From Catajapyx aquilonaris (taxonomy: Eukaryota), in the NCBI GenBank assembly GCA_000934665.2, contig JYFJ02001466.1, forward strand, positions 1 to 64,000: a stretch of 64,000 nucleotides of DNA, in the 5' to 3' direction. This document shows, piece after piece, positions 2,578 through 62,375 of the stretch (position 1 is its first letter; each line of letters begins with the position of its first letter). Made by a program: the position numbers and the translations under genes. The notes under the pieces were generated by a model. The model did not search any database and had not been told where the DNA came from. It saw only the letters and a program-made list of their open reading frames with translations.

Positions 2578-3970
2578 ATGGCCCGATTTCAAAAGGTTAG
2601 TCGATTAGAATCATGGACCTGGTTTTCATATTGGTAGAATCTTGGGTGTATAAGGCCAATAAGCTGAAAAAGTGTGCACATACACGGTGTTAGTTAAAGA
2701 TATTCAAGAAGGTGGTCAGCCAAACCGGACTGTGCCGCATTCCAAGGAGCAGCTTTGTACCGGGTGGGTCATTACTCATTGGCTGTTTGGAAGGGGCCAT
2801 CCCCACAATTTTTGGGATATAGCTTGGAGAGAAGTTGGCGGAAATTACGGCCAGGTTGCATGCTAGTCATGTGGGAAATTGAGAGTTTTCCCAGGGTTGC
2901 CTGCACGAAGGGTCCCATATGTGACCCCTCCCCTTTTCACTGGATTTGAATAAAAAAATGTACATACGCACTGATTGGTTTATTAGTTTTTGCTACTCAT
3001 TGTAAATATCAGATGTATGTCAATGTTGAAAATATAATTAATTTCAGAATGGTCGCATTATGTTGGAAGAACTATATGACGTATATCACCCTTAATAGGA
3101 ATAGTACGTGAATATATAAATAGTTTTGCCAGGGGGTTCTATTGGTGACGTTTGCAGGAAACGCACATGTCAAACTGACCTTAGTTCACGCTCGGTTGGG
3201 AGATATTCCAATAGCGTTCTGTCATCTGTTGTGTTGCGAATGAATAGATATGTCACTCAAAATGGTAACAGCTACATCCCAGTTTTCACCTCTCTATATA
3301 ATAGAAATAGAGCAGTTTTTCTGCGATAGTCCACCGGATAGGCAATAGTCGCACCCTACTTTCATATCGCTCCAGTTTTGAAATGACATTGTCTTTTCGC
3401 TTCCCTGCCGAACTATTGAGAAATGAAATTTTCTATTACGTACTGTGTTTATAGGCTATAAAACTGTTATCTACTCCATCGATTAGGAAGGAAAATTGGG
3501 TGTCTCACGTGTTCAATGACCGTGGGATGGATGCCTTCTAGGGCAGCAACTACTGTGCTGTCATCATACGCATTCCAGACTAGACCACATTTACACGTGG
3601 GAGTCGATCATTTATGTCATTATCGAAGGAAAACTGGATTACCTCCAGGGTGTGGGTGTGAAAAAAATTGGTAACATTTCAAGTTTTTTTCTTTCTTCTT
3701 CATGCGATATGGTGGCTTGATAACCTGAAAAGCAGTGGTCATTACTACTATAAAGGCCCCCACCATTCTTTTCAAAAGCAAGGTCTCGATAGCGAAAAGC
3801 TCCGTTAGTTGCATTTTACGGCCATTACCAACACATCATATTCTTAAACAGTTAATATATTAATAACAATAGCTCGTCACACAAGAGTTAATCCGTACTT
3901 CCCCTCAATTTAACCTCACTCATGCAAGTCTAGGAGTGGTACAGTGCTGAACATTAATGGTGCCATGTTC

Positions 3971-4037
<67 letters not shown>

Positions 4038-7000
4038 GGGTCCGGTACCACCACCACCACCGACACTAGAGGATCCTCTGGTATGCGATGATGTCCAGTT
4101 TGACTCCCTGCTGTCTCGACTGGACACTCGAGGATTGGTCAGTCTGATTAGGACCATCCAGTCTCGGATGGTATCGGAGCAGACGGCCTTCGAGGCTCTG
4201 GGAGGTCAGCTGCAGGAGGTCACAAACGACCTGCAGCGACAGGAGCTGTCGGTGCAACTTTGCGCCAGACAAGCTCATCTGGCGCAACTTTGCGCCCGCA
4301 ACCTCCGCTGCTTTCTTCAACACCAGGTGGGTCGCAATGGCCATGTACGGCCGAGTTTAAGTTCTTTGGTCCTTTTGGCACCCACTCGTCCACGACACAC
4401 CTATCTGGCCATAACTTCCTCCTACGAATATCTGCAGGTACTCTTCCCTGTTTTAACCCTCCACCGGCCAACCTTGCTGAAGAGGTTGCGCTTCACACTT
4501 CACTGTGTCGTACTGTTGGTTAATGAGGCGGTTTGAAACATTTTGAATACATCTGTCAGCCTCCATCTCTGGTCTGTTGTTACCGCGACACTTTCTATTG
4601 GCCCAGTTCTGCGCGTGCGCAATGGTGCAGAGACAGCGCCTCTGGTGGGTGAGAAGACTTTACTATGGGAGACAACTTTTTTGACATGTATAGTAATCCC
4701 TAAAGTGAAAGTCTTGTCGTAGACAGTCGGTATGCAAATCCTCCTTCAGAGTCACTAGGCGGTTCATTGAGGTAGGTGTACAAAAAACTCCCTGGGGCAG
4801 GACAGGTAGCTCTCTTGGGGACACCCCCAGAATAGCAAGGCCACAACCCCCATCAGCAGGTAGGCGGATTTTCAAAGGGTGCTATGGCCTGGATGGAAAA
4901 ATACACTGACCTTGGTGGGCAGTGGCACGGGGGCGTCGTGCAGCAGTGGAGGCGTCGCGTGGGGGCCTCCTTTGGATTAACCACTGGTGGTACAGGGGGT
5001 GCTCCACCTTACAGACCGTCACCCTCCACCTCCTCCGCATCCATCTTCTCCTAGACCACTCGTCCGTGCAATCTCTCCTCCAGAGCTAGTAGCACAAAAC
5101 TTCCTCTGCCATAGTACACTGGTGCTCTTCGGAAGGTACGCACCATGGCTTCACTCCGATCCGCTTATCTTCTCATGGCGTTAGAGGTGAGCTTTTTTTT
5201 AATTTTCTCATGGAAACATCCGGTTCGTGTAACGCACCGTTATGATCAAAACAGTTCGGGAGTCATTGCGTCCACAGATGGTCGTCGGGTTTGTTATTGG
5301 GCTTGAAAGGTAGTGGTGTGTGAAGTATGTGGCATTCTTCCTTGTGTAGTCAGGCGTCCAAGTCACTCTGCCATTAGTGATGCTGCTAGATGGACAGGAT
5401 GGTATGGCAGAAGGAACGCAAATGTGAGTTTATGGTGTCAAAATTAGTCGCTAATAGCAGAACCGGTTGTAGCAGTGGAAATTAGGGACGATTTTTGATT
5501 ATGTCTAGGTCATATCGTGTAGGCGTGGGTAGGTAACGTAAACTATATACTTTTCCTGATAATTTGGTGCATAATGAAAATAACCGAAACATAAGGAAAT
5601 CCTTATCAAGGTTGGGCGATGAGATAACTGAACAGAAACGAATCTGCTCGTGCATAGCGGCTTGGCACAAAGTGTACGGTATTTCTTTTTTATACCAACC
5701 TATTAGTAAGGTTTACGGGTAGATATTAGTTTATGAACTAAATTGTCCGGCTCCTTCACCTCTTGTCGTATAGCGGTTATTTTTTTTTGATGGATCGACA
5801 TGCTTTGAACACACTGCCGTGAAGTCGCACGATGCATAAAATTAGGTCTTAAATATTCAACACCTCTTATTGTCTCAAAGACATTGTGATGTACAGTCTT
5901 TGCAAAATATTTGGAGCATACATAAGTACGACTAAACAGTCAGGAGGATGTCGCAGAAGATTTTTTTTGTGTGTGGAGTGTTTGATCTCCGAAACATTAG
6001 GCATGTAACTAGGACTTGTTGTTCTTTTTTGGAAAAGCGTGAGTGCCCAAGGACGCATACATGACATGGGATGGACTGGTAAAACTGGAACAGTGGTATA
6101 TGTGAAATCAAAGAAAGCGTGGTACCCTGAACCTGTGGTGCTAGCAGGGGCATCCCGAATAGAAAGGAATACCACAACCGGTACATAAGCGTCCAGTACT
6201 TTCTCAATACATCGACGATAGCCTCCAGGTTTTAACTGCCTCCAATTTTTTGAACTTCACGTGTACGGTCCAATCTGATACGTCGGACTGCTGAGAAATG
6301 GGACACCAAATTACATCCGGAAAAAGGCCGGACCTGCCCAGCACATGACTTTCAAATTCTCGACTGGTGTTGAGCCTCACCCTGTACGTAGCACCTGAGG
6401 AAGACACAGGTTTCCACTCAAGATATACCCATAAAGAAGCCCAAGTTATTACCGTGTTGACGAAGTCGTGACATTTCCACTAGGAAGGTAAATTGCTATT
6501 TATAACCCGTGTAATTATTACTACATAGACGTAACAATTTAGTGTGACGTATAACCGTCCTTAGATAGTGACATCACAAAAGGGCGGAATATAAAGTAGC
6601 CATAAATTGTTCAATAAAGCAAACATCACGCCCACTTTAGGGTTCGAACATTAATTACTTTTGTTCATTGTAAACATCACGAAATGTATTTTGGGTCCCA
6701 CGGACTGTCAGTGACTCTGATGTCCTATTAGTGGAAAATGTACAGGGTGAGTCATAACGCCGTCAGTCGAATCAGGCGACGACGTCCGATTACCAAACAG
6801 GGCGTTGTCGCAAGTATATGCGACCGTCCTTGACGTTTTGCATGGGATCAGCAGGAGACTCGTGTAGAGAAAGGGGGTTGGGTGGGTGTCATGGCGTAAG
6901 GCTTGTGCCGTTAACTGACCCACCACGAGACACATTTCCGCCTTCTAAAAACCGACAGATAACAGCCAGGCAAGCACTTGACACGAAGGTGGCCACCTAC

Positions 7001-10000
7001 TTTGTCGCACACATTCTCCTTCTTCTTCTTGCAATTCGGGGGCATTTGGACCAGAGCTTCGAGGACGTGGGATCCCTGTGGTTCTTTTCCTTCCGCGGAC
7101 GCACTTTGGCGGAACTAACCTGGAAGGGGCCTCGGTGGCCAGAACGGTGTCCATACCGTGACGCAGGGTTTTTCTTATTGCAGAAGCAGCAGCAACAGCA
7201 ACAACACAAGCCTCCTTTAGCACCGACAACAACAGCAGCAGCGGCACCACGCCCACGTCCGGCAGGTCAGGAACCTCATTTGGCCGTCGAATCTGGTGGA
7301 CGAAACAACGTGAGTACATTTTGAGAAAGTTGTGGTGCATCTCTAGAATGAACCGGAAGTGTGGGCGGAACAATCACGAAATGGTAAGTCGCTCTGTAAA
7401 ATGAATATTTGTTATCGCCTACAAGTTGCCATTCTTTTCGTGACTGGTTACGCCCACACTTCCGGTGCAATCTTGCACTAGATGCGGTTTGTAAGGCTAG
7501 TGCCAAAATCACTACAAGTACTGCAGTGGGTTGCATCGCAATCAAGGTAGATAATCAAATCAGGATTTAACGCATTATTATTATTCATTGTTTATAAATA
7601 ATAGCCAGCAATGAATGAAGTCCGTTAAATCTTGGTCAGATCATCTTGATTGTTGTGGCCTAAGTAGGTCTACCACTGAACTACTCTACTGCTATAGGCA
7701 CCTCTGGGGTACAATAGTTGTCACCATTGCTGCTTTTCGTGATGTAAGTTATGTGAAAACTGTTAATAAACTGTACCGTTGCAGGAAGGTTTCTACTCGC
7801 TACCACGTCGACGTCCATTGTTCAGGCCGCCCAGCTGGGACTCGCTGAACAATAGAGACGACAGCGATCTGCCGGTACGATCATCGGTGGACCACGAGGT
7901 GCAGGAACGCTCTAGACGTCTGCTGAGGTCGTGGAGCGCACTGGACGTGCAGGTCGTGCCCGATGACGAGGATGACTGCTGGGGACTCGGAAGAGGACAA
8001 CTGGCACGTGCACCGTCGGTTGAGGAAATCCTAGCGTCGGTCAAGGCTCTACGGCAACGTCGACCCCAACAGGAGATGGGTATCCTGGGCAAGGAGGAAC
8101 CGTGCTACGCCAACGTCGGGATAGTGCGCGGTGCGGCCGACGGTGCTGAAGAGCGACACTATGAGAACGTGATCAGGAAGGACACGGTCGTGCATAAGGA
8201 AACTGTGTACGAGAACGTGCGAGTGCCCGTCACTTATGACGTACCAAAAAGCGCGGTACATGTGTACGACACGCCCAAAAGCAGCAAAACCAGCAGCCTA
8301 ATCCCTACAGCCGCCCGACTTGTGATGCGCAGTGTCATCAAGACCAACAGACACGAAGATGAGGAATGTGAAGCCGATTCCCTTGAAGGTGCGGCCTCGA
8401 TGGTGCCGGACATACCTTCTCCAGGTAAAGCCACAATCTTTCCCCTAATACGCTTGGATGTTTGGCCGACCTAATACTACCGCTATCTATCGCAAGGTGG
8501 CAGGAGTGTACAGAGAGAGTGTGCGCCATCTATGCGTGAAGAATAGTGGTAAATCCGGGCAAATTGATTATCAATCATAATTTTGGCAACATGTTCGCTA
8601 GGAATGCAATAATACCACAGCAAAAATGTATGAATACAGGCGAATATTTTGACCGGAATTAAGCGGGGGTGGTTGGGGCCATAGGGCGTGGGCCTCTGTT
8701 ACCACGACGATGGGGAGGAATTTTTCCCCATTCTACTTCGAGGTAATAAATGCTGCGGCCATGCAGCTAGCTGGGAGCAAGGTCATCCTGTGCTGGCTGG
8801 TGCCCTGCGGCCATTCTTCGGAGGGGGAGGTTGGGTGATTACCTGGGCTGGGCCTACTTTTGTTCCTCTGCTTCTTCCAGACTACGGCAGTGAAGAGGAA
8901 GAGGACCTACTGGAAGAAGAAGAAGAAGAGGCATCAGACGAAGGTCTGGGCGAATCGGACGAACGAAGCTTCTACACTGAGGATCCAGGTTAGTAACACA
9001 CCTAATTGACATTAGTGTGGTTAGCATCATATTGAACAAAAGTGGTAAAAGGCAATGACATTGCCCGGATGGACGTTCAGTGCGGCATGAAGAGGATGAG
9101 TTTGAAAGCGGATATAGTGATGGCGAAATGTATGGACCATTCATGCACGGAGTGTACCTGAGGGACAAGTGCGCAGGTGATGTGAAATGATTGCCAGCTT
9201 ATGACGAGGTGCTTGAGACACCTGACAAAAAACAAAAGGTGACAGGAATTGCAATGTCACTGTCCTCGTTTCCTGGCCTACATGACGTAAATGTTGAAAA
9301 CGTTAAGACCGAAAAATGGACGGAATTCAGAAATGTGACGTCATTTAGGTCCATTCATACTGATACTTTTTTGCAAGAAAGCTGCTTGCCAATAAAATTA
9401 TGAATCATAAAATAATTAATACCGTAACAAGGTTGCGTGATCGTTGGTCAATCCAGAACAAGTAATTAATCCATAATTAGGGTTGTGGATAATATTACCG
9501 ATCAATTTACCAGCAAATAGTATACCATATTACGCAACGATGTTGATGCCTCACTTAGTGCCAATTCAAGCCTCACGTCATACCAGGAAACGCACACAAA
9601 AAACGGAAATGGCAACAAGTGTCATACCCCGCGAGATAAACTCATCAACGCACTTCAGTGGATCTTATCTGACTTTTTAGAAACCTCCTCACCGACACTA
9701 CAACCACACCCTAAATCCCTCCATATGTGGCATCATGTCTTTATTTGCACTTGAAAGCCTAATCGAAATATTATATTTTGAAAATATGATTATGTCTACG
9801 CTTTTATAGGATCTCGCTAATTTATAACTCCAACTTTTTCACTATAAATTGTTAGGGTATGTTTTTACGGAAGGACTTTTATGTGGGGAGACCGAATGTG
9901 GCAGCGGTAGGGGCACGCTGCCAAGGCTGTACTTTCCTTCCCGGCAGATACATGCATATTTTTCAGCGGATACATGCCTACGAAAGTGAATACGTAAACT

Positions 10001-13000
10001 AATATCGTAGCAGTTTTTCCTGTAGCCTATACATTTCATAGTACAGAGTTGATTTTGGTGACGTTTTCATGGCACCCATAAGCGGTCACTTTTATAGCAA
10101 TTACAATATTGTACTTTTATAGCTTGTTTTGCGTTAATGCGCCTTTTGGACTTGTAGAGAGTCTGCGATGTTTACACTCATAGCACGTGACCATTTCCGT
10201 CATGCTTTCCCTCTCCCAACACAATATTGAGAAAATTGCCTCCAAATTGCATAACCGTTAGCCTACACAACCCCCTCAATATCCGTCGTATCTGCATTAA
10301 ATCGCGACGTTTAACCCTTTCATCTGGTCTGGACCCAGTGACCTCCCATCCAAATGACTTTCCACGGCCACAATTACACCCAAAGCGGAAGAGTCATATC
10401 CACCCTTGGCAAGACATCGATAAACCGAAGCCAGTACCGCACACTGTACGCGACCGTATCCTAGAAACGTAATCGGCTGAGATGTTGATCTATGTTGATT
10501 GCTTGCTGGAGTCGAGCCCAAATTGGGGCAGTGCAGCGAAAGGGAAAGAGGTTTACGTCCAGCGACCAGCAGCCACCACGGAAGACCGGTTTGGATGTGG
10601 TGAGAGGCACCCGCATGTGTGTTGCCTTCTCTCACGTAGTGTACATCAGACACGAAGAATGGCTGGAGGTGTGCATCAAGGCAGGAAGTGACGCCCAGTA
10701 GAGCGAGGCACTCGTTCGCTGCCCTCAGTCGTCGTGTCTTCAGCCTCGGGCCAAGATGCTGGGATTCCTGGACTGGATACTGCTGGTCCTGGTGCTGTCT
10801 GTGGTCTTCTTGGGAGTGTCCAGGATATGGCAGGGTAACGTCTGTAGGGTGACGAGAGGAGGCGGTCAGGTCCTAATATGTGTGCGAGGAGCGTTCCCGG
10901 AATGTGAGATCATCGGGTGTATATAGGTGGCCCTGAGGTCATCGACGGGTAGTCGACAGCTGGATTGTGTCGGAGCAAGTAACATATCGGTGGGTAATGT
11001 CCCCAGGTCTGGAGGTCATACTGGAGGAACCGGAAGAGGAGGAGGGAGGAAGCACCACCAAGGACTCATTGGCTGTTGCGACGACTCCGATCATCGCCGT
11101 CAATGGAGCATCCACCTCGACGTCCCCTACTGCATCGGAAGGCGTCTGGTCCGCCGACGGCGCCGACGTCGATGACGTTTCCGGCAGACGAGCTTCCGGT
11201 AAGGATGAATTCACACTGGGGTCGTTGGGCCGATGTTGGGAACACGCTGAAAATTCGTGCATAAAAATATTCACTAGGTGCATGAAATTATTCACTAGGT
11301 GCATAAAATATTTCAAGGTGCATAACATTAGGATGGCAAATAATAAATTATTCACTTTCCTACATTGTTATAACACATACGAATTGATTGCAAAATAATT
11401 TTCTCACTATTTTTATTTGTTTTTCCGACAATTTATGCAGCTATAGTTTTTATGCCCTTTTCCCGGTATGAACGAACTTTAAGGTGACACTTAAAACCCA
11501 TAGGCAATATTCACCGCCCTGTTAACACCTCGGGTGCAGTACGTGTTGTTGCAAATGCATGAAGCAACCCTGCTGGCTTCCCCCTAGCCAATAGTTGCCT
11601 CCGGCCTACAGTTATCGCGTATCGCCGATATACCCAACAGGTGTTAGGTATTGTTTGACTTGATAAAAAGGCACGCAGTGGCAGTTATAATCCGACCAGA
11701 GATGTTGCATGCTACTCTGGCAGTTGGAAACACATTTCTGGCGCTGACCAAGCCAACAGGTTAGTCTCTTCTTATCTCTATAGGTATACTCTGGTAGACA
11801 CTTGGGAAGTAGGTCGTGATTTCGACAGGTTGCACAGGCCGTTTCGTAACCGGGCTGTACTTGATATACGGTATGACCAAGCCTGTACGGAGTCACCGTA
11901 TGCAAATTATTGCGTGTCTGCCCATATCTGATCAGCAGGTCGTGATATGCTGCCAGTTTATAGCAAGCCAAGTGCTATGAAATATTTTTACAGGATGATG
12001 ATCTCAAGGAATTCTTGCTCGAAAAGGTCCTTCAGGTTCATCCGTATCGGAAACCCGTTAAAAAGAAGGGGGGCACAAAAAACCACCGTTTTATAGGGTC
12101 GTATATGATGATACGCTGCTTTTCACCTGGCGCGACTATTACCCTGAAAAGTTCGCTCATTAAGGATCAGAGAGCCTTCTCTTAACTTCCGCCTTGGTAT
12201 GACTTTCACTTGCGGAAAAAGACAAGGACCGGAAATGCAAGGAGACTTGCACACCGGATACGTGACCGCTCTCGAAGTATCAGTACAAAGGGTAGTTACA
12301 GCCATTAAAAATTCTCATTAAGCTGTTTGTAATTAAGCAGCTACTTGTATCACCTGCTAGACTTATGTAGTGCAGAGCGATTAGCAGAGCACGTTGGCGA
12401 TGAGTCATTGAAGTGGGTCGGGACAAACTTGTGGACAGACAGAATTAGGGGTTTAGCCGGTATATATAGATAGCCATGGAAGTGACGAATTGCCTGTTTA
12501 TTTCATGTAGACTAAACCATGGTATAGATTTGGGTAACCTGTAAAAAGACGTGCTTTATTTTTAAGCACTTAATTAACTGCTTTAAAATAAGCAGCTTAC
12601 AATTATTTTTAATTGGAGCACGTTTCTGGCCTGGAAAGTACCACCCACATATCCACATAATTGGCTTGTGTCAGCTGGGGACAATGATGACCTAAAAATA
12701 TACGTATTGGGTTCAATTGACGGGACTTCCTCCGCATGCAGATGCAGGGCAGCAGACGGACCGATGCGTCGAAGTGTACCAGGAGACGCTCAGACAACGA
12801 GGGATGAAGAACAGCAGCAGCAGCAGCAGCAACAACAGCGACGTCAAGGCAAGTAGTTGGCGCAAATCAAGGTCGAATCGATGAGTCATGTCGTGTGTTT
12901 GTCGTTAGGCGGTGCGGGCGTCGTCGACGTCGGAGCAGCTGCCGTCGGTCAGGGCACTTCGCTCCAGATTCGAGCATCGTCACGACGGCACCGACGCCGC

Positions 13001-16000
13001 CCCCAGGATGGCCGTGCGACCGTCGCAGCCACCGCCGCCTCCTCCGACGGCGACGGCGACGGACGTCGTCAACCACTTGTCATCAGACGGGCTCAACCAC
13101 AAGGTCACAAACGGTGACCACCACCACGCCCACGGTGACCTACTGGACGGTGCACCGACGCCGAGGATCTGCACACGACGATGGGATCCGGTAAGGATTG
13201 TTCACCCTAGCAAAACCCATGCTCCAGCAACTGGGTCAAGGTCGTTTTTGCACGTGCTTGAAAATGTGTAATTGCGCGCAGAAATGTTGCGCAAAGTACT
13301 GTCGTGATTCACCTTCGACATACAGTTGCGGAAAAAAGTATGGTCGAATGAATTCAGCCGTTTTTGAAGTTTTTTTTCTAATGGCTCAGGTGGTGTTTAC
13401 TATTTTTTTATTTTATTTTATCAGGTGTGTAAATACGCGTGAAGGTTGCGCCTGCTTCGTATTTCTTCCGGGTTTTGTACCACTGTTAAACGCGGCGTTG
13501 ATGATGATGGCACCGCATACCGCAGGTTGTTTACTCCAGCAACCGTATTGTAATGCACATTGCTAATTAGAACGTGAATTGCTGATTGTCATGCACAATA
13601 AATAGGACACAGCTGCGTGGTATGTCATCGCCCAGAATCTCACCCATTGTGCATTAAGTGAAAATTGTTGACTCGAGCAACCCGTTGCCAACAGTGCAAC
13701 GGCCTTTGCAATATGCTTGTTATAAATATTAGATGATTTCACTGCAAAATGTGTATATCAACAGGTGAATCAGGAGCATGTTGGGTTGCATATGGGGTCA
13801 GGATAATGTCCGTTTTTATCCAGGAAGTTTTAACCTATTTTGCATAATTGGAGGAAGTATGGAGGGCACATGCAAGGAGGGCGGGGGAGGAAGTTGCTTC
13901 ATCTAATTGTTACAGGGAAGTATGGGAAGAGACGCCTACACATGGAAAATTCAGTTGGGTCAACAGTTGCATGGATGTGACATGATGATAGTGTAATACA
14001 GCACTCTTTGTCATTTCCAGACCAAGCTTCTGTCAATGTTGTATCACGTCCCGGAGGTGAAGGTGGGGAGCAACCCAGATGTGTCCAGCACCTATGTTAA
14101 CATGGAGGGTTACTTAGATGTGCTGCCGGCTGGACGCAAGAAAGCCACCTACTGGAATGCCTGGAAGAGGCGGTATGTACGTGCCAGGGATGGTGTCCTG
14201 CGTGCGTATGACTCTGCGGCTGATGCAATGGCTGCGGATGAGTCAGAAGATGCTGAAGAGCCGCCGGTGTCCATGTGGTTGTCTGGAGGGAACGTGGATG
14301 TGAGTGAGGCCACCACGCTGACCAACGGTGATGGAGGAATGGTGGGAAGGGACAGGCAGCCACTAATGAGTTGCATCCTCGGGGTGGATGATGGCCGAGG
14401 AAGATATCTGACTCTGAGGACACCTAGCAGACAGGAGTGCGAGAGGTGGCGAAGAGCACTGTTGACTCACACGGTGGAGAAGTGTGATGCACATCTGGTG
14501 CGGCCATGGCCACTGCCAAGGGAGCCGGAGCTGTTCAGGCCTGCAGTCATAATTGAGCTCGGGAGCTCCTCCATACGAGCAGGGAGGCTCTGCACACAAC
14601 GTAAGTGCAGGATGGTTTTGCAGATGGCTAGAAATTCCTTACAATATAGAGAGCAATGCATTAGGCAAACTCTTCTACAAGTATAACAACTTGTCAGTGT
14701 TATCGATGACATTAATCTACATCTATAGACAGTACAATTCTACAGTATGAAGTTGTCAACATTTTCACAACCATTTAATTTATTTTTCCAGCGGTCCTCC
14801 CACAGCTGTTCTTCCCATCAGTTGTAGCTGTGGAACGTGAGACATCCAAAATCCACTATGGGGCCTCTGCCCTCCTCCCGCACATTCGATCCTCCTCCAC
14901 CTTACACTATCCCCTCCGCCCATCGGAAAAGATCTCAAAGTTTGCCCTTGAAACCTCCCATCTGCATGGACTCTTCACCCACATTATCCAGTCACTCAAT
15001 GTCCACCAACCATCTGAGATGGGAGTCCTCTTAGTACTGCCACGTCGCTTCCCCAATGCCACGCTGTCCCTCCTGGCTGCCATCCTTCTGGAGGAGCTTG
15101 GTTGCAGGTGGCTGGCAGTCTGCAGGCAAAGTGTGCTGGTGCTGTATGCCTATGGAGCCACTACTGGAGTTGTGGTCGACATAGGGGAGCGCACTGATGT
15201 AATCTCAGTGTCCGAGGGATACCAGACGTATGGCAGTGACACCCGGATGCCATGTGGTGGGAGGGTCTTGCAAGAACAACTGCGTCCAGCATTGGCACAA
15301 AGGCAACGAGTCGGGATCACTGGTGAGATGGAGGCGCTGCTGCTGAGGTTAGCTGCGGAGAGCCTGTGCTATGTGGCCAGGGATTACAAGGATGAGCTGA
15401 GGACAGCTGCTGAGGAGCCAGGCTTCTGCGAGGGCAGCGTGCAGCTCAGGGAGTTCTTTTCTGAAGAGGAATGTCCTTGGGAGTAAGTACCTCCCTTTTC
15501 ATGACACCTTTTGCACTTTTAAGGCCTCATGAAAGACATAAAATACTAATGTTATGACCGTGCATTTTGGTGTCATCTTCCCACTGCTGTACTTCACAAC
15601 AGACATGAGATACTCTGTAAAAGTCAGGGCAACAGCTATAAGTGATGTGTTTTATCATTTTGCATTGCTTAGCAGTAGAAATATAACCACACGTATGAGA
15701 GGTATAAAATATTTTGTAGAAACATAATATATCATCCTCGTTGTAAATGTTACGTATGTTACACATCAAGCATATTTTGATGCATCAGAGCCTAGATCTA
15801 AACTACACCTTGCTCTCTTCCTCTCCCTTATGCAGTTTGGAAGAAATCCCAGAGTAAGTACTGATTTTCATAAGTGTTTGTCCAAACATATATTCGTTCC
15901 GGCTGTCCTCCAAGCAGACTGCAATCAGAATACATTATTTATATGCTACACGTGGCCATTCTTGCTTACCCCATGATTTCCAAAAATATTGCTGCATTTA

Positions 16001-16468
16001 CACCAGCTAAAAAGCTGCAATCAAAAATGTCGTATGGTTACACTGAAGTAAAAACTAAATAATGTGTTTCTTTGCAGTGAATTAACGTTGGACACTGGCA
16101 GATTCCAAGCTCCGGAGGGTCTGTTCCAGCCAAGTTTATGGGGCTTGGACCAACCAGGACTCCACCGTTTGGTCCACTCGGCCATCCAAGAATCGGGACT
16201 GGACCTCCGCCGTGAAATGGCCCGAAGCGTGTTCCTGTCTGGTGGTCTCTCCCTCATCCCCGGATTGGCTGAGAGGCTGCAAGACGAGCTCACCCTCCTG
16301 CTACCCCCTGCCGTTTCCCCAAGGGTTCATGCCTCTCCATTCAGATACCATGCAGCCTTCCTTGGGGCTACACAACTCGCCAACCAGACCCAATTCAGGC
16401 AAATTCAGGTCTCCAGGAATGAATGGAAATCAAACAGTAACAATGCAATTGCTCGCTGGAATCTGTAA
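2578..16468 (+). CDS. Long-isoform model of a PH-domain plus C-terminal actin-like-domain protein (~1170 aa) with a helical N-terminus and a long disordered region
   Basis: Phase-consistent exon chain 2578-2595, 4039-4326, 7184-7309, 7785-8424, 8881-8988, 9081-9176 (weak acceptor), 11007-11198, 12742-12848 (GC donor), 12909-13190, 14021-14600, 14792-15482, 16078-16468, totalling 3519 nt in one open frame. Linkage of the exons upstream of 7184 is inferred from phase and the FLQHQ|KQQQQQQH junction only. Confidence 0.6.
3971..4037 (+). repeat. (TTA)n microsatellite, ~22 units
   Basis: Directly visible; runs into the AG acceptor at 4037-4038. Confidence 0.97.
10684..10730 (+). promoter_or_regulatory. 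Candidate internal promoter of the PH-actin gene (GGAAGTGACG motif plus TCAGTC initiator)
   Basis: TCAGTC matches the arthropod Inr consensus TCAKTY and lies about 30 nt upstream of the ATG at 10756. These are short motifs and could occur by chance. Confidence 0.4.
10756..10834 (+). CDS. Putative alternative first exon of the PH-actin gene encoding a hydrophobic signal/membrane anchor (MLGFLDWILLVLVLSVVFLGVSRIWQ)
   Basis: ATG in ccaagATG context, 26 codons plus 1 nt, CAGG|gtaacg donor. Phase 1 matches exon 11007. TCAGTC Inr-like motif at 10725-10730. Confidence 0.65.
11258..11325 (+). repeat. Short tandem repeat, ~21-bp unit (gtgcataaaaatattcactag), ~3.3 copies, intronic
   Basis: gtgcataaaaatattcactag / gtgcatgaaattattcactag / gtgcataaaatatttcaag / gtgcataa. 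Confidence 0.8.
14021..16468 (+). CDS. Core PH domain plus actin-related (Arp-like) domain exons of the same gene
   Basis: PH: MEGYLDVL...WKRRYVRARDGVLRAY...YLTLRTPSRQECERWRRAL. Actin fold: AVIIELGSSSIRAG...PQLFFPSVVA; RQSVLVLYAYGATTGVVVDIGE; ESLCYVA; GRFQAPEGLFQPSLWGLDQPGLHRLV; VFLSGGLSLIPGLAERLQDEL; RYHAAFLGATQLA. PH and actin start lie in the same exon (14021-14600). AATAAA overlaps the stop codon (16467-16472). Confidence 0.92.
15836..15853 (+). CDS. Putative 18-nt frame-preserving microexon (adds six residues, LEEIPD) within the actin domain
   Basis: Long pyrimidine tract with TGC motifs (ccttgctctcttcctctcccttatgcag), perfect gtaagt donor, phase 2-2 matching the flanking exons, no stop. 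Confidence 0.65.
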
Positions 16469-17394
16469 TAAAAAGGGTAAAAAAATGACTTAAACTTCTT
16501 AGGGTTGCTCAAAATGTAGGACGAATCAAAGAATTGAAATTCAGATTGTAGTTTACAGAGCAGCGCTATTCTGCATGTTAATGTAGCATGTGTGTGCAGA
16601 GAGTTTTAACTTAATAACCCACAGCATTGTTGTATATACTGATTCTCTGACTACAATGTTGCAAGCTAAGATTTTAAAACTCTATTTAGTGGTCTGTAAG
16701 CTGCAAAAAAATATTTTCTGCATGAATAATGAAGCACAATTTTACCTTGTCTCAATCCCAACAAATGTCAAATCTTGACTGATCCCCTGCAATAACAATG
16801 ATTCTGGAGGACTGTGATAGTGTGTAAGCTGGAGAGAAAATTTACTTTGCCACCATAGTTTCCTGAAAAATAAAAAAGAGTGTGTTATGTAACAACGAAT
16901 TAATTATTTGACTGCATTTCAGGTTGTGTTTACATGTGAGCAGTTGATCAGCAATGAGCATCGTTGAGCGATGGAACCAATTGTTTGGGGCGAAAGTGAC
17001 AATAATTGTGGTAACTATTCCGGTCCGTTCCAAACAATTGGTTTCATTGCTGGGCGAATCTCTCACATGTAAACGCAGCCAACGGGTCTACCTCTATGTA
17101 GCATTCCTATCCTCCAAATCTGGTTCTGGAAGAGAGGTCAAAGTTCAACTGGGCTGCACTTAGGATCCACCGCAGGTAAAGAAAGTCAATAGACCGGCGT
17201 AAATAATTTATGCAACACCTACCCCTGAATCAAAGGGGCAAACAAAAATATATGTCAACAATGCAATTCCCTTCCCAGGGAATTGGACTGCAACAATTGA
17301 TCTGAGCACTAGCACTATACAACAGAATTATCAGAGTCGTTACAATTTTGCGTGTCCGTTAATCGAGTTGTCGGGATCTACATTTTCGGTTCAT

Positions 17395-17922
17395 CTACTG
17401 TCTCTGCGATTCTCTTCTTCCTTCCTCCTTGCCCTTATTTTCAGGCCCTTGCACATTATCTTTGAGCTGAATTTCTTGATCAAGTCTCTCCTTTGCACGT
17501 ACCACCTTCGACTGCAGGTAAAACGACCCTCCCTTCGCCTTGTCATTGACACCGAACAGGTGGTCAAAGCTCTTCTGAACCGTTTCTTTCTCAAGGCCAT
17601 CCACATTCAGAATCTTCTGCGCCTCCTCCACTGATATGCCTGTCCGCGCATTGGCAGCGGCACGTTGGGCTCCAGCTTGCCCACCGCCACCTCTTCTGGC
17701 AGCTTCCTGACCAGCAGCAAACTCCTGGTGGGTGACACATCATTAGAACTCGTCACATTAATTAGGTGACTTAATTAGCCTGACAAAATAGCCAGATTGA
17801 TGATCATTATGATGATGAAATTTAGGCCATGCGGCCAGCAATACCTGCTTAAGTGCTCTGGCGAAGGCTCTTCCTAGGACCTGGGTCCCGGTGATGATGA
17901 TCTGGACCAGGTAGCGGGCCAT
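17395..17922 (-). CDS. PAM16: Mitochondrial import motor subunit PAM16/Tim16 (Magmas), 135 aa, two exons
   Basis: Exons 17922-17845 and 17724-17395 encode MARYLVQIIITGTQVLGRAFARALKQ|EFAA...GISVEEAQKILNV...FDHLFGVNDKAKGGSFYLQSKVVRAKERLDQE, the hallmark J-like domain of PAM16. Confidence 0.97.
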
Positions 17923-18080: not shown

Positions 18081-18436
18081 GTCGAACGCGCCACGTTCAC
18101 ATAAGAGTGGCAATCACACAGTGTGATTCGAGTAGACTTTTTCTCATTGGGTAGTGGGAAATGAGGCTGACAAACACGATTCGATACCGCACGATGCGAT
18201 GCGATTCTAATAGGACAACAATGACGTTGATTGTTGTCGGTCTCATTTCCGGTTGCCTGTGATCTTGGCGGATATAAGTGAACCTGGATAACCGGAAATG
18301 GTGGGTCACCGGAGGTTCACCATGAGACCTATTTAGAGTCCGCTGAATCCGAATCCGAAAACAGTTTGTCTCTATCGCTTGCGGTTTAGGTCCTGATACC
18401 TGTCCACGGACAGACAGACAGACAGTTGTCGTTCTA

Positions 18437-18541
18437 CAGGATGACCCTAAAGTCAGGACACATAGGTAATTGAATTGTATTGTTGATTGACAATAAAATA
18501 TCATCCAATTACCTAAGTGTCCAGACTTTAGGGTCACCCTG
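18437..18541. mobile_element. Tc1/mariner-type MITE (105 bp)
   Basis: About 39-bp imperfect TIRs (caggatgaccctaaagtcaggacacataggtaattg vs reverse complement cagggtgaccctaaagtctggacacttaggtaattg), flanked by TA on both sides. Confidence 0.8.
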
Positions 18542-21343
18542 TACATGTCGCTTTAAATGAGAAAAAGTATATAACAGCAGCACCCAAAGCTGCTGAAAAA
18601 TGAACTAACCACATAATGCATAATGTAATGCACCTCAATTAATAAAATGGTAAATTGATATTATGACACTTTTAATGACCACACAATGCCTGTAGTGGGA
18701 ATGGAAAGAACATCTTAATGTAAACACGTACTTTACACAACATCGATTTAGAAAGTAAGCTACTCGTTTAAAATTTTCCAACCACCCATTACGATAGAAA
18801 ATATTTCTAAACCAGTAACAATGTGTTATCATTTTTTTTTCTTCTTGTTTTCTTAGGAATCATATGGGTTGGTTACAATGTACATACACTGGCCATACGT
18901 ACAACTCTTTTAGCGCCATAAGTTTATAGAAAAAAGTTTTTTTTTTTGGAACTTTAAACCAGTTTGCTGAAAACAGCGGAGGAAGTCATGAGCACTAATT
19001 ACAAATTTTTAAAAATCACAGTTAGAACCGTCAGGAATTTAGGTAGTACCGTATCATGCACACACAGTCTATTATTCCTATTGTAATGAAAATGTTAATG
19101 GATATTGTGTAATACATAGAAAGAGTCAAGACAATGTGAGTTTAGAAACAACCATAAAGAAGAGCATGTAAACTATTTCCTGCCTTGTGGTTACGACTGA
19201 CTGAAACAGTGAAAACTGACAAAGCATTTCTATGTCGATTAACCTCTACCCTTCTCCAATCCAAAGAGACCAAGAAATTACCTCACATGGTAGGATGGGC
19301 AAGGTAAACCCAGCGAAAAAAAAAAAAAAATCCACCATACCCAATTCCCCAGCAGTTACCATACTAAAACTGTTCACATGCGCTGCTTACATGTCAGCAA
19401 CAACTCATTAATCCTGAACAAAAGTAGCATAAGCAAAAGTGTACATGCAGGCAGAGAATGGTATTAATGTCCTTGTCCGTTCACTTTTCCATCTCCATTG
19501 ATTGTAATTACACTGATCAGTGATACCCCTAAGCTCAAAAGTTCACTAATTCCATCCCAAAGCAAAACATTTGACGATTTGTACTTAAAAATACAGGCAG
19601 TTACATGTAACACAATCAAATAGGTAAGTCAAATCACCCAGCTTTCAAACTATATCCTGATTAAGATTCATGTCCTCTTTGCTCACTGCATTCATACTCT
19701 CACAACTCTCTGTTTGTTTTCACACATTCTCATTTGAACCAGTTCACATTCACATCGTAATACATTGACTAATCGGGCTGCAGACCATGAAATGTATCCA
19801 TCTGCGTCTCAATTAGCCTTGGGATGAATTGGGGTAATAAATAGCTGAATGAAGAGAAGGTGGAGTGGCAGAATGGTAATGCTCATGCCCGCTGCAAAAA
19901 GGGTCCCAGGCTCCTTCAGTCCCAGTACCCGGGTGTAACAGAAAGGTCACATGCTTGCACATCTAAGAAAATTCAGGTATCGTGCCAGATGCCCAATACA
20001 GGCAGTGCACTAACCCAATTTTTAAATAATAAAGGGCAACAAATAAAGGGTCAAATTAAGCCATGCAACAATAGGCAGATGTCAAAATCTCCTACAACTG
20101 CAGAACAACTTAACACCAAAAAGATGTCGAAACAAGTTTTGCCTTGGGATAGGAGAAAGCAAGATAATGATTGTGAGATGGAGTGACACCCGTTGAGTGT
20201 ATATCCAGACAGCATCCAGTTATTTAATGTGATGGTTACCCATTTTTCAGTGGTCAGTGTTGATACCTTACTAACCAAATGCAATAGATCATGAAGCAAT
20301 TTCCAGAAATATGCTGTATACACATCGAGACATATTGAACTTTTTTGGAGAAAAAAATTATTACGCGATCACTCATCTCCAACTGAAGACGGTGAAAACA
20401 ATTATTGTGACAAGACCCCTTGAGTGCAGAGAGAATGAGTTGTAGTGACATCATGATGAACTCTATTAGCACCAGTACTCCAACACCAGAAGTGAGCCTA
20501 TGTTCCAAGTGTTTACACATGGCACTCCAAAAGCAATAAATTGCCTTACATTAATACATTCAGTAGACAGTACTGATGCTCAGACAATTTCTTGTGACCA
20601 AATATAATCTCAAGTTATTGGGGACATCCGCGTAACATATTTTCTGAATAATTTAAATCTTATTTGTTAGAGGTGTGCAAGTAAGGCCATCCAAATAGCT
20701 TGCCATGTATCTCACATGCACAACAGCTTAATGCAATTCAGCAGCAACAGTAGGTGAACCAGGATTCGTTTCAAATGTGACAATTATGCGCTGCGGTATA
20801 ATAAATTATTTCCCAGAAAGTCTTTCTCAATATTCTTTGCTATTGAAAAAAGTTATTATTGACGTGAAATACAAAACAGCTCTTTACACTGTGACACAAT
20901 TGAAGGGCCTTTTTTTCTTGGAAATTTGACCCACACTAAGAAGATAATACACAGTATATATCATGTGCCAGAAATAAAACTAAATACCTCTTTATCATAC
21001 TAAAAATAACAGAAGTCAATTTCTGCTTCCTAAAGCCTTTTAAAATCACATCCATCCCTTGAGGGTTTCAACCACATTCAGACCTGCTTTTAAGCCATAA
21101 TTACACATGGACACAATATTCCCTGCCCCTGAAGTAGAAATATCAGCATGTTTCACAATTAAGATGACATATGTATAGGCTAATTTTGTAACAGACCCTC
21201 CTGAGTAAAGCTGCACAGCACATTTTAGTCACCCAGATGAACCCATTATTGCTCTTTCCCTTTAGTATTTTTTCTTTCCTCCTTTCTTCCCCCACTCATG
21301 GCGACAGAAAGACCAGTGAGCATACATGACATTTCAACCAATG

Positions 21344-22044: not shown

Positions 22045-24295
22045 TCACTCTGGTCGCCCATATTCACTGATGCAAACGTCCAGATTGGCCCCCTTGATAT
22101 ACGCCCGTAATTCAATGAGCTCCTGCTGGTTGACCCTCCAGCAGGCCAGGCATCCAACCCAGGTGAGAAGAGGGCAAGTGTCAATAAGCATTCGCACACT
22201 ATCCACAGAAAGCTCCTCTGCCTGCTTCACGCAGAATGTCCGCAGTTTGGGAAAGGGATTCTGTGAGAGTACAGTTCCAAGGTCAGCATCACTCATCTTG
22301 CTGCAGCTGAAGAAGCGAAGTTCCTCCAGGGCAGTGCAGCAGCCCAGGAGGCGCATTAGAGCTGATTTTGGGAGGTCGCATCCCCACAGAAATAGGTGAG
22401 TCAGTTGGGAAAAGTAGTTGATGCAGCGACCAGGGCGGCGTAAAAGAGGGTCATCAGACTGCCATCCAATACTGGTGTCCTGGCACCTGCACAAAAAAGC
22501 ACCCTTACTGCAAATTGCACGACAATGACAGCATTGCATTCATACACACCTGAGTCGCCTCAGTCCTGGACAGGTTGCTCCAACAACAGCCAAATTGAGA
22601 ACACCTCTGGCCAGCTGCATCTCTGCAAAGTTCCTGGCCGCACCATCCAGCTTCAGCGCCTCCACTTTCTTTCCATGCCTGTCCAAATAAGTAGTCAGCC
22701 CATCCCAACTTATAGCCTGAATGGTCAAATCTTTCACTTTGGTTAGAAGATGTAAGCTCCCAAACACTTGAGTCTGTGCAGAATAAAGGCAGAGACGTTC
22801 CAGGTCTGGGCAGATGGCTGCCAGCATCTTTAGTCGCTCCACGTCTGTCTTGGTGTCACATAGGTAGCGTAGGCGAGTGGTGAATGTTGACATTCGTGGC
22901 TGGTCCAGGCTCTCTAGGGCTGCTACTAGAGCTTCACCTGAATACGGGTATGTTGGAAGGGCCTGGAGGTTTGGGCAAGCTTGGATCACAACTGCCAGAA
23001 GGCTTGGTGGCAGGTCACCCTTGTTGACATACTCTGCACCAGTGGAAAAAGTCTCCAACGTATTGCAGCAAGGGTTGCGGGGACGCCGATGTACCGGAGT
23101 GTCGCACGCACGACTTGGCGGGGAGTCCTGGAAACAGAGCTGGAAGATGCCTGCCTCAGTTGGATGGCAAGAGCGACTGACATCCAAGTTTTGGAGAGAA
23201 GGGCAGCTGCGGCCCACAGTTAGTAGGACGGCATCCAGGTCACATTCGACACGGAGGGTCAAGGACATCAGGTTGCGAAGGCGGCCCAAGGTGGTCCGCA
23301 GAAGGGGAATCTCCTGCTCCTTGAACCAAAAGTAGTCCACCTGACATTAAGAAAGAAGCCATTAGAATATCACATTATGTGCATTTCGGGGATAACAATT
23401 ATATATTTTCCACTCTGAAGCATAAGAAAACACATACTGCTGTGCTATGAGACATTTTGAGTGAATTACCTGCAAGCCAATCAGGCCATCCCCATTTTCA
23501 ATCAGATTCAGAAGGAATCCCCTCCTGTAGATGTACGGGTCAGAGGTAAATGTTACATTCTTGATGTGTTTATTCATAAGAAGCTGCAGGGCCCCAAAAT
23601 GCGACGCCATGCAATCATTTCGCAGCAGCCTTTGCAGAAGCTCCTGCAACAGCACAGGAGGAAGGCTCTCCTGCAGCTCTTTCTTCGCTTTGGCCACAGC
23701 ATCACAAGTATCCGCAGTCCTCCATGTCACATTATGACGCCACTCTTCCCTTCCTTCCGGTCTTGGAGAAAGGCTAGAACGAATGGGTGTCATGAAAACA
23801 GCCTGATTGTGCGGCAAGGACTAAGCTATAACCTCCTACTTGCAATGCATTTATCGTCACGAAACAATAGGGCATTAAAATGGCCTGCACCTGAACACAA
23901 AACAGCATTGGTCTGAGACGTTTTCTGCTGGTTTTGCGCTTGTCATTCTAAAGCGTTAAATTATTATAACAGTACGTCACACATTATTTCATACTGTCGA
24001 CATTTACTTTATGTACGTACTGATATGTGCAGTACATGTACCGGTATGTAATCTTGTCAGTGCATGACAGAGTTTGCACTATTCAACGTGGCATGATGAC
24101 AAGTATCGATATTGTGGTTACCCTTCCTTGTTGTCTGGATGGTTGGCGAAGTTGGCAGTGCCACCCTCAATGTCCCTGACCTCCGCTGCATACCCCCCTT
24201 GGCAGAGGCACTCCTGCTGGGTCAGATATGCGACGATCTTCCTCTCCAGGTACTTGAGACAGGCGTTGGTCAGAGAGGGCACCGACACCACGGGA

Positions 24296-28600: not shown

Positions 28601-29425
28601 AAATAAATAAATAGCTAACTCGTGGTCTTTGCTGAGAGCCTCATTTTAAAATGCTAGTGTGAACCTTTGTGGTACTGCATACACTGCAAACCGCAAGCAT
28701 CACTACAACGTAAACCACAAACCTTTAAAAGAGCATCACTACTGAGTCTCTCATGAAGCATCAATCAACGAAAGCATTAAAATATTGTTGCTCCATGGGA
28801 AACTCAGTAGTGATACTATTTTAAGGCGTTGCAGTTTACAGTGTAGAAAACCCTTAATTTAAAGTAATTAAGACCCTGATTATCCAACCTCTGTTTATCC
28901 AACCATCCTGCACCGGAAATCAATCTATGTTTACTCATCAACTTCTGTAATGTTCTGTCATTTGTTTTGTTTTGCCTTAGTTAAATTGAAAATACAATAC
29001 AGTAGAGTGTGTATGTAACAGATGTTACGGTCTTCTTACATCTGACGGCAGATCTGCCGAAGGAACATTGGGTGGAATTTTCGTACCACTCCTAGTTGCT
29101 GCTAACTTAGCAGTACCAGTGTAGTGCATTGGTACTGCTAGTCAGCAGTAACTAGCAGTGGGATAAAAATTCACTGTCTCTCTAGCAACAGTTCTGCCAG
29201 GCCTTATTGACAGGGTGCGGATATGCCTTTCAAGAGTGCGACCCAGTCCGTGCCGTCACCTGGTTCCTTCGCCCTCGTCCAGTGTTTCCCGAACAGGTAT
29301 GGTCCCATGTAGAGGATGAGTCCGAAGACGATGACGATGAGGAGGAAGGCCTTCCTGTAGGACAGGTACCCGTCCAGCCGGTCCAGCCCCCTCTTCACCC
29401 TTCGGATCAGCTCCAGCAGTTCCAT
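25647..29425 (-). CDS. KIAA2013: KIAA2013 homologue (DUF2152 family membrane protein, ~625 aa, four exons)
   Basis: Exons 29425-29260, 28124-27602, 27210-26198, 25822-25647 (1878 nt). Motifs [97 protein letters not shown]...[16 protein letters not shown]. Confidence 0.93.
27254..27300. repeat. Perfect 22-bp inverted repeat with a 3-nt loop
   Basis: gttgaataattttttattcttt-tcg-aaagaataaaaaattattcaac. Confidence 0.92.
27300..27551. mobile_element. Degenerate MITE with ~37-bp TIRs in KIAA2013 intron 2
   Basis: ctgaggggtctgagataaaaaatggccaagtccactt vs reverse complement of the right end ctgaggggtcttggatttaaaatgaccaagtctactt; no clear TSD. Confidence 0.7.
28705..28845. repeat. Imperfect foldback/MITE remnant in KIAA2013 intron 1
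   Basis: ctttaaaagagcatcactactgagtctctcatgaagcatcaat pairs with attgttgctccatgggaaactcagtagtgatactattttaagg. Confidence 0.7.
29072..29174. repeat. ~50-bp-arm imperfect palindrome in KIAA2013 intron 1
   Basis: gtggaattttcgtaccactcctagttgctgctaacttagcagtaccagtgta / tgcattggtactgctagtcagcagtaactagcagtgggataaaaattcac. Confidence 0.75.
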
Positions 29426-48840: not shown

Positions 48841-48907
<67 letters not shown>

Positions 48908-62033: not shown

Positions 62034-62375
62034 GGGGCCTTCCAGACGGGCCGACCTTAGCCGCGGCCGGCACCGGCACCGGCCCCGGCACCGGCTTGCG
62101 GAGCCACGGCTGGCCACGGTACCCGTTCAGACGGGCACATATTTAATTTATTTGTAATAGTGGCCGGTAGTCATGGCAGCGACGAAAAACAAGTGACGCG
62201 CAGTATCCGTCGCCGAGGCCAAGCCGTGGCCAAGCAGCGAGCCAACTTCCAGGAAGTCGGCCAACTTGGCCGACTTCTGAACCGTGGCCTGGCCGTGGCC
62301 GTTGCCGTGTGAACCGTCGCGGCCTCCACCGGCCGCGGCTGGCCGCGGCTAAGGTCGGCCCGTCTGGACGGCCCC
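62034..62375. mobile_element. GC-rich MITE (342 bp), PIF/Harbinger-like termini
   Basis: 35-bp TIRs with 34/35 identity (ggggcc[t/g]tccagacgggccgaccttagccgcggcc; 62034-62068 and 62341-62375), flanked by TAT on both sides. Confidence 0.85.

Follow-up and report, generated by a model that had tools for sequence, protein, structure and literature searches.

Could a 2-kb intron (8989-11006) of a plus-strand gene of Catajapyx aquilonaris contain a second promoter and a hydrophobic first exon, from which a membrane-anchored form of an otherwise soluble protein would be made? The question arises within a stretch of 64,000 nucleotides of contig JYFJ02001466.1 (positions 1 to 64,000 of the forward strand), hereafter the window, in which the host gene spans ~4060 to 16468 and encodes a coiled coil, a cluster of tyrosines, a PH domain and an actin fold. 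We find that the site within this intron is a good candidate but not a demonstrated exon. The account we favour, to which we would give a little less than an even chance, is that the intron holds a lineage-specific internal promoter and an alternative first exon of the PH-actin gene that would be spliced to position 11007. The features that bear on this account are the following, in which a slash within a sequence marks a predicted splice junction.

10725..10730, plus strand: initiator (Inr)-like TCAGTC, a motif match in which A+1 would be 10727.
10754..10758, plus strand: downstream promoter element (DPE)-like AGATG, a motif match at +28 to +32 from the Inr A that overlaps the ATG.
10756..10834, plus strand: candidate alternative first coding exon, an ATG-led run of 26 hydrophobic codons followed by the split-codon base G.
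10835..11006, plus strand: candidate 172-nucleotide intron with donor AGG/GTAACG and acceptor CCCCAG/, the latter common to the canonical mRNA.
10904..10909, plus strand: second, stronger phase-1 donor AAT/GTGAGA in the same open reading frame (ORF), score 3.3, which would give a 49-codon first exon.
10251..11006, no strand assigned: GC-rich, stop-poor block around the candidate exon, GC 0.53-0.58, with several ORFs of 70-190 amino acids.

The 26 codons that run from the ATG at 10756-10758 read MLGFLDWILLVLVLSVVFLGVSRIWQ, the last of them ending at 10833; the split codon opens with the G at 10834 and GT comes next, at 10835. The ATG has an A at -3 and an upstream in-frame TAG at 10699, TCAGTC lies 29 nucleotides upstream of it, and there is no ATG within 10727-10755. 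The acceptor at 11006 is the same site that serves the canonical mRNA, exon 4 running from 11007. Exon 3 of the canonical mRNA likewise finishes in phase 1 on a G, so that either route reads Gly and then LEVILEEPEE, and an Eriocheir crab protein (XP_050688581, P0003) has the identical reading across its exon 3/exon 4 junction. The earlier note on this DNA had described a TCAGTC, an ATG, 26 mostly hydrophobic codons and a phase-1 donor that fits the exon at 11007, and each of these is where it had placed them. It had also derived a spliced protein of 773 amino acids without the tyrosine cluster; the exon that encodes the cluster (7833-8424) is indeed missing from our spliced models of the candidate isoform, but these come to 759-771 amino acids, a spread that arises because a small junction near 12843/12908 is uncertain.

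The signals are plainly present, and how rare they are can be counted. The hydrophobic run is the strongest single feature of the candidate exon. As a measure of hydropathy we took the best 19-residue Kyte-Doolittle mean of an ATG-led ORF, which is 2.62 for the candidate. Of 1000 dinucleotide-shuffled copies of the intron, three (p ~0.003) contained an ATG-led ORF of at least 2.4 and one contained such an ORF of at least 2.6. Five ORFs reach 2.4 in the real window, both strands included: two are microsatellite products (3957 on the plus strand and 12889 on the minus strand), two lie in sterol-sensing/Patched-type exons (46919 and 50538, both plus; Pfam), and the candidate is the only one that is neither. 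A further nine non-repeat ORFs outside the sterol-sensing/Patched-type gene have means of 2.0-2.3 only. No tandem repeat underlies the candidate ORF, the nearest being at 10560-10578, and no dispersed repeat of at least 40 nucleotides does so either; a repeat origin for it was rejected on these grounds.

The promoter-like signals are of a kind known from Drosophila. In a set of Drosophila promoters, TCAKTY is found in 66.5% and RGWYV in 22.1% of promoters, and RGWYV is given as the DPE consensus together with its position relative to the Inr (PMC1538597). Like a Drosophila-type TATA-less core promoter with Inr and DPE, the site has a TCAGTC that fits TCAKTY and an AGATG that fits RGWYV at +28 to +32; unlike such a promoter, it is known here as a motif match alone, against a Drosophila consensus, and its DPE overlaps the ATG. 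TCAGTY by itself is not enriched, with 60 matches in the window on both strands against 72.6 expected. The composite TCAGTY-N23-RGWYV occurs twice in the window (128 kb of strand) against 1.47 expected, and one of the two copies ends on the ATG at 10756; the sole other exact composite is at 19916-19949 on the plus strand. From the density of the composite it follows that the chance of a copy within 60 nucleotides upstream of a given ATG is ~7e-4, and here the exact spacing is found within 30 nucleotides. We note that three of the five letters of AGATG come from the ATG itself, and, since the ATG supplies these letters and the test followed the noticing of the Inr, we treat the DPE match as supportive and not decisive.

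Two further properties of the site fit an exon. Using splice scores from a crude frequency matrix, we find that six of the 19 GTs in the candidate ORF are in phase 1 and that these six include the two top scorers, namely 10904 (3.3), which is the best of all 19, and 10835 (1.3). The block at 10251-11006, ~750 bp in length, is also richer in GC (0.53-0.58) than the 0.39-0.44 found across 9001-10250, and the remaining GC-rich blocks of the host gene are exons.

Transcription, splicing and translation of the candidate exon are what we would infer from these signals. With the Inr-like and DPE-like (+28) motifs as its core promoter, transcription would begin near 10727, and translation would begin at the first ATG, 10756, so that the first exon would encode a hydrophobic helix of ~20 residues. 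Splicing would then join 10834 to exon 4 at 11007 through the canonical acceptor; the stronger in-phase donor at 10903/10904 might be used instead. The predicted product, of ~760-795 amino acids, would retain the acidic linker, PH domain and actin fold but have neither the coiled coil nor the tyrosine cluster. Its helix might tether a cytosolic PH-actin protein to a membrane as an N-out/C-in anchor, or it might serve as a signal peptide or a type II anchor.

What such an isoform would share with the canonical protein, and what it would lack, depends on the exons of the host gene, which were placed by alignment to relatives.

4063..4368, plus strand: N-terminal coiled-coil exon of the canonical isoform; conserved, with 33-43% identity to Plectus and Eriocheir proteins.
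7833..8424, plus strand: tyrosine-cluster exon (YANV, YENV twice, YDVP, YDTP), placed by ORFs, tblastn and alignment to relatives.
8881..8988, plus strand: canonical upstream exon 3, acidic (DYGSEEEE...SFYTEDP), with donor CAG/GTTAGT in phase 1.
11007..11198, plus strand: shared exon 4 (LEVILEEPEEEE..., acidic linker), in phase 1 at both ends.
12742..13190, plus strand: two small conserved exons (DRCVEVYQETLRQR; LPSVRALRSRFE), the junction between them uncertain.
14021..14600, plus strand: PH-domain exon extending into the beginning of the actin fold, placed by PF00169 and alignment.
14792..16468, plus strand: two actin-fold exons (14792-15482 and 16078-16468), placed by PF00022 and alignment.

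The domain assignments are above the curated cut-offs. PF00169 matches with 28 bits (E 3.3e-6, residues 35-155 of 13997-14686) against a cut-off of 25.1 bits, and PF00022, whose cut-off is 27 bits, matches with 56.1 bits (E 3e-15) at 14779-15486 and with 94 bits (E 1e-26) at 16052-16468, the actin match making up the C-terminal ~400 residues of the host protein. Exon 4 aligns to the GLEVILEEPEEE stretch of the Eriocheir protein. At 12843-12938 two in-frame stops lie between the stretches that code for DRCVEVY and LPSVRALRS, and the GT-AG pairs that would keep the frame all need a very poor donor, GAC/GTCAAG, with a crude score of -5.7; the exon structure there is uncertain. At the other end of the gene a long (TAT/ATT)n microsatellite (3944-4084) adjoins the conserved coiled-coil coding region. 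There is an acceptor-like TTATAG/ at 4038 and no in-frame ATG ahead of the first conserved coiled-coil residues, and the canonical isoform therefore probably has its true first exon, and its start codon, upstream of the coiled-coil region.

We made several other observations on the gene and its introns. Over the region examined for CpG (5250-17000), the observed/expected ratio is ~0.9-1.3 across ~5250-13750 and 0.33-0.58 from the PH and actin exons onward, a drop which suggests that an unmethylated 5' half gives way there to a methylated gene body in the 3' part. Just 3' of exon 3, at 9089-9187 on the plus strand, is an acidic ORF (EEDEFESGYSDGEMYGPF...) with a codon-usage segment score of 14.7, which could be a further alternative exon or noise. 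The intron after exon 4 has a 21-nucleotide tandem repeat in 3.4 copies at 11257-11325. No nested gene was indicated by any Pfam match above cut-off among 20 ORFs taken from both strands of the surrounding introns, the two weak matches having E values of 0.004 and 0.037; an Rfam scan of the entire window gave no matches. A metagenome scan using the PH exon returned one locus, L001, in which only 18 residues matched and which we judged spurious.

The host gene is a member of an uncharacterised family of invertebrate proteins with a coiled coil, a tyrosine cluster, a PH domain and an actin fold. It was assigned by a collinear match to family members that extends from the N-terminal coiled coil through the LEVILEE linker and the DRCVEVY and LPSV.ALRS.FE motifs to the PH domain and actin fold. 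When representatives were searched with the PH exon, 121 proteins matched at E<=1e-3 and eight at E<=1e-30. The top matches are from decapod crustaceans, at ~50% identity, and further ones are from an amphipod, an ostracod, chelicerates, a centipede, odonates, bivalves, a crinoid and nematodes. Among the members are Eriocheir sinensis LOC126981511 (XP_050688581.1) and Plectus sambesii A0A914V687; the family shares with the host gene the coiled coil, the tyrosine-rich exon and the exon 3/4 junction as well as DRCVEVY..RQR, LPSV.ALRS.FE, the PH domain and the actin fold; other members come from Macrobrachium, Panulirus, Hyalella, Strigamia, ticks, scorpions, bivalves and a crinoid. In a protein collection, the Plectus protein was the only match to the actin exon, and none of 125 candidates found with exon 4 held that exon. 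All of the relatives are named in their sources as 'uncharacterized', 'PH domain-containing' or 'actin', and a single literature search, which covered listed records and the openings of abstracts, returned no relevant description of a PH-actin family.

The family is rich in alternative 5' ends, with isoform labels that run to X13 in the prawn Macrobrachium, X6 in Eriocheir and X5 in Panulirus. Some decapod isoforms of 2600-3000 amino acids (P0002, P0005, P0008, P0158, P0159) have alternative N-termini of ~2000 residues; these long N-termini join 3' of the LEVILEE exon, at ...DTPSPGPP..., and are without the coiled coil and the tyrosine cluster.

Several results weigh against a real internal promoter and first exon, and we set them out together here with the explanation that they would most help. 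That explanation is chance: a CTG/GTG-rich stretch of intron would happen to read as an ATG and a hydrophobic run, the motifs nearby would be coincidental, and the intron would never be transcribed from there or spliced. We regard it as unlikely, yet well within reach. The hydrophobic run is less exceptional on the scale of the window than on that of the intron: when the whole window was shuffled in 300-bp blocks, with the microsatellites kept, there were 1.13 ORFs of at least 2.4 per window and 0.35 of at least 2.6, so that the window-wide rarity is moderate and not extreme. There is also some selection effect, because the candidate was chosen by eye from a large scan, and the nine non-repeat ORFs with means of 2.0-2.3 are present in the window as well. 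The donor AGG/GTAACG has no G at +5 and is weak; its score falls below those of seven of the eight homology-supported donors of the gene (2.2-5.4), and 13 of the 133 GTs in the intron score equal to it or above. Codon usage, which had seemed favourable, is of no help. Against the intron background the 26 codons score 13.9 bits, matched by 0.05% of 3974 stop-free intron windows, and a composition-controlled, frame-specific score of 8.1 is the top of the six frames; but 16 other spots in the 7.1 kb of the gene's introns reach an equal 26-codon score, and maximal-segment scans give numerous intronic segments of 9-20 bits, for which reason we discarded codon usage as evidence. To these may be added that TCAGTY is not enriched and that the count of the Inr-DPE composite across the window equals expectation.

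The comparison with relatives is a further point on the side of chance. The earlier note had pointed to conservation in related genomes as something to look for, and at the protein level we did not see it. With 147 family proteins as queries and the low-complexity filter on, tblastn found nothing within 8990-12732; with the filter off, exon 4 was the sole match there. Among the 112 family proteins of at least 300 amino acids, there is no case of a hydrophobic first exon that leads into the LEVILEE exon, the arrangement that would set the candidate isoform apart from the rest of the family. One of the 112 does have a hydrophobic N-terminus, isoform X2 of Limulus polyphemus LOC106462082 (XP_022244923.1), in which an annotated N-terminus of 24 mostly hydrophobic residues replaces the coiled coil, as the candidate exon would. 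It differs in that it joins the exon after the coiled coil and not LEVILEE, and its hydropathy mean is 2.02 versus 2.62. On comparison the two peptides have no sequence similarity, and homology between them was rejected on this ground; the Limulus N-terminus may be read from intron sequence, and the isoform is an analogy at most, not a homologue. We note that a young exon would escape a test of this kind, because the nearest relatives are only ~50% identical in the PH domain.

What speaks against chance is the convergence of several independent signals on a single place. An ORF as hydrophobic as the candidate is rare for the intron, the Inr and DPE are at the exact spacing just upstream of its ATG, the two best GTs are in the phase that is needed, and the context is GC-rich and exon-like. 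The proposal of an internal promoter and a hydrophobic first exon, as made in the earlier note, survives in part: the rarity of the ORF, the Inr/DPE spacing, the A at -3 and the in-frame stop upstream, the phase and the GC content argue for it, as do the many alternative 5' ends of the family, the hydrophobic Limulus N-terminus among them, and the want of conservation among the relatives argues against it. If the proposal proves false, the locus will be a useful case of weak signals brought together in an intron by coincidence.

It is also possible, though we consider it improbable, that there is a real internal start whose RNA is not spliced as we propose. The product would then be a single-pass peptide of 56 amino acids (10756 to the stop at 10924-10926) or a non-coding or regulatory RNA, and there would be no PH-actin isoform. 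The promoter-like signals are identical under this explanation, the donor at 10835 is weak, the ORF continues beyond it for 30 codons to the stop, and there is an AATAAA at 11342, in the next intron. Set against this, the 30 read-through codons have a near-zero coding score (0.96 bits), no homologue of the 56-residue hydrophobic ORF was found among 32 candidates in the protein collection, and a usable acceptor lies 172 nucleotides downstream and is served by two in-phase donors.

Less probable again, and in our judgement quite improbable, is an internal or 5'-untranslated exon entered through one of two acceptor-like sites, CCCTCAG/ at 10728 and TCTTCAG/ at 10743, which would give a frame-shifting, non-productive transcript or one whose start codon is elsewhere. 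Each of the two sites has a crude score of 2.7, and the TCAG of the Inr itself has the form of an acceptor. An exon entered in this way would put exon 4 out of frame, with a stop inside it, and would leave the ATG-led hydrophobic run unexplained. An in-frame cassette between exons 3 and 4 was rejected, as none of the six AG sites in 10701-10755 is in the right phase. Finally, it is hardly credible that the minus strand codes and that the plus-strand ORF is a by-product in which a Gln/His/Asp-rich sequence is mirrored as Leu/Val, for although the 191-codon ORF at 10297-10872 (minus) is stop-free in exact codon register with the hydrophobic ORF and its antisense in-register score of 4.1 is second among the six frames, the plus frame scores higher (8.1), the ORF matches no Pfam family, and it is made unlikely as a true coding frame by its low coding score (0.037 bits per codon versus 0.246 for real exons) and by the lack of a Met until its last 10 residues.

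If the favoured explanation holds, and the internal promoter and alternative first exon are real, there is the separate question of what the hydrophobic helix would do. The full form of the proposal is that the Inr/DPE promoter would produce an isoform in which the PH domain and actin fold are tied to the membrane by an N-out/C-in helix, while the upstream promoter would produce a soluble form with the coiled coil and SH2-type tyrosines; this we consider doubtful. The predicted helix is long enough to span a membrane, with an uninterrupted core from W7 to V21. It is preceded by one Asp (position 6) and no basic residue and followed by one Arg (Arg23), and the Asp before and the Arg after it would favour the N-out/C-in orientation, that is, a tether with a cytosolic PH-actin protein. 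After the Arg, however, there are seven acidic residues in ~17, which makes the net charge of the C-terminal flank negative and the flanking charges ambiguous, and the small residues that follow the hydrophobic core, with G at -3 and S at -1 relative to Arg23, look like a site for signal peptidase. Cleavage as a signal peptide, or a type II orientation, is equally possible for the peptide, and in either case the PH domain and actin fold would be in the lumen of the endoplasmic reticulum, which is implausible for these domains. The ambiguity of topology lowers the likelihood of a membrane-tethered protein more than it lowers that of a real exon.

Alternative promoters that give soluble and membrane-anchored isoforms are a known mechanism. 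Catechol-O-methyltransferase (COMT), for example, reportedly has two promoters that give rise to soluble S-COMT and membrane-bound MB-COMT, and the candidate isoform would resemble it in gaining, through a second promoter, a hydrophobic N-terminal anchor on what is otherwise a soluble cytosolic protein. The two COMT forms share the entire soluble part, whereas an anchored PH-actin form would lose ~400 or more residues, namely the coiled coil and the tyrosine cluster; COMT also belongs to a different protein family, and the anchored PH-actin form is a prediction from sequence. With conventional actins and actin-related proteins (Arps; PF00022) the host protein has in common a C-terminal part that matches the Actin model, and it differs from them in having a PH domain fused directly upstream. 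We know of no actin or Arp with an N-terminal transmembrane helix, and to our knowledge neither a membrane-anchored actin-fold protein nor a function for this widespread invertebrate family has been described. A transmembrane-anchored actin-fold protein would be new. If the helix does act as a tether, the choice of promoter would decide whether an actin-like module is part of a phosphotyrosine scaffold or is fixed at a membrane, and this would provide the first functional handle on a conserved but little-explored family with members in crustaceans, chelicerates, myriapods, insects, molluscs, nematodes and a crinoid.

Elsewhere in the window there is a Pam16 exon on the minus strand at 17395-17739 (E 7.8e-31) and a weak leucine-rich repeat match, also on the minus strand, at 22045-22539, whose 23.8 bits are below the curated cut-off of 27. 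The gene for the sterol-sensing/Patched-type membrane protein, two of whose exons contain ORFs that reach 2.4, lies at 46607-50906 on the plus strand. Lastly, there are three inverted-repeat pairs, at 18435-18543, 28703-28846 and 62034-62375, with arms of 44-63 nucleotides and 79-91% complementarity, which may be small foldback elements.

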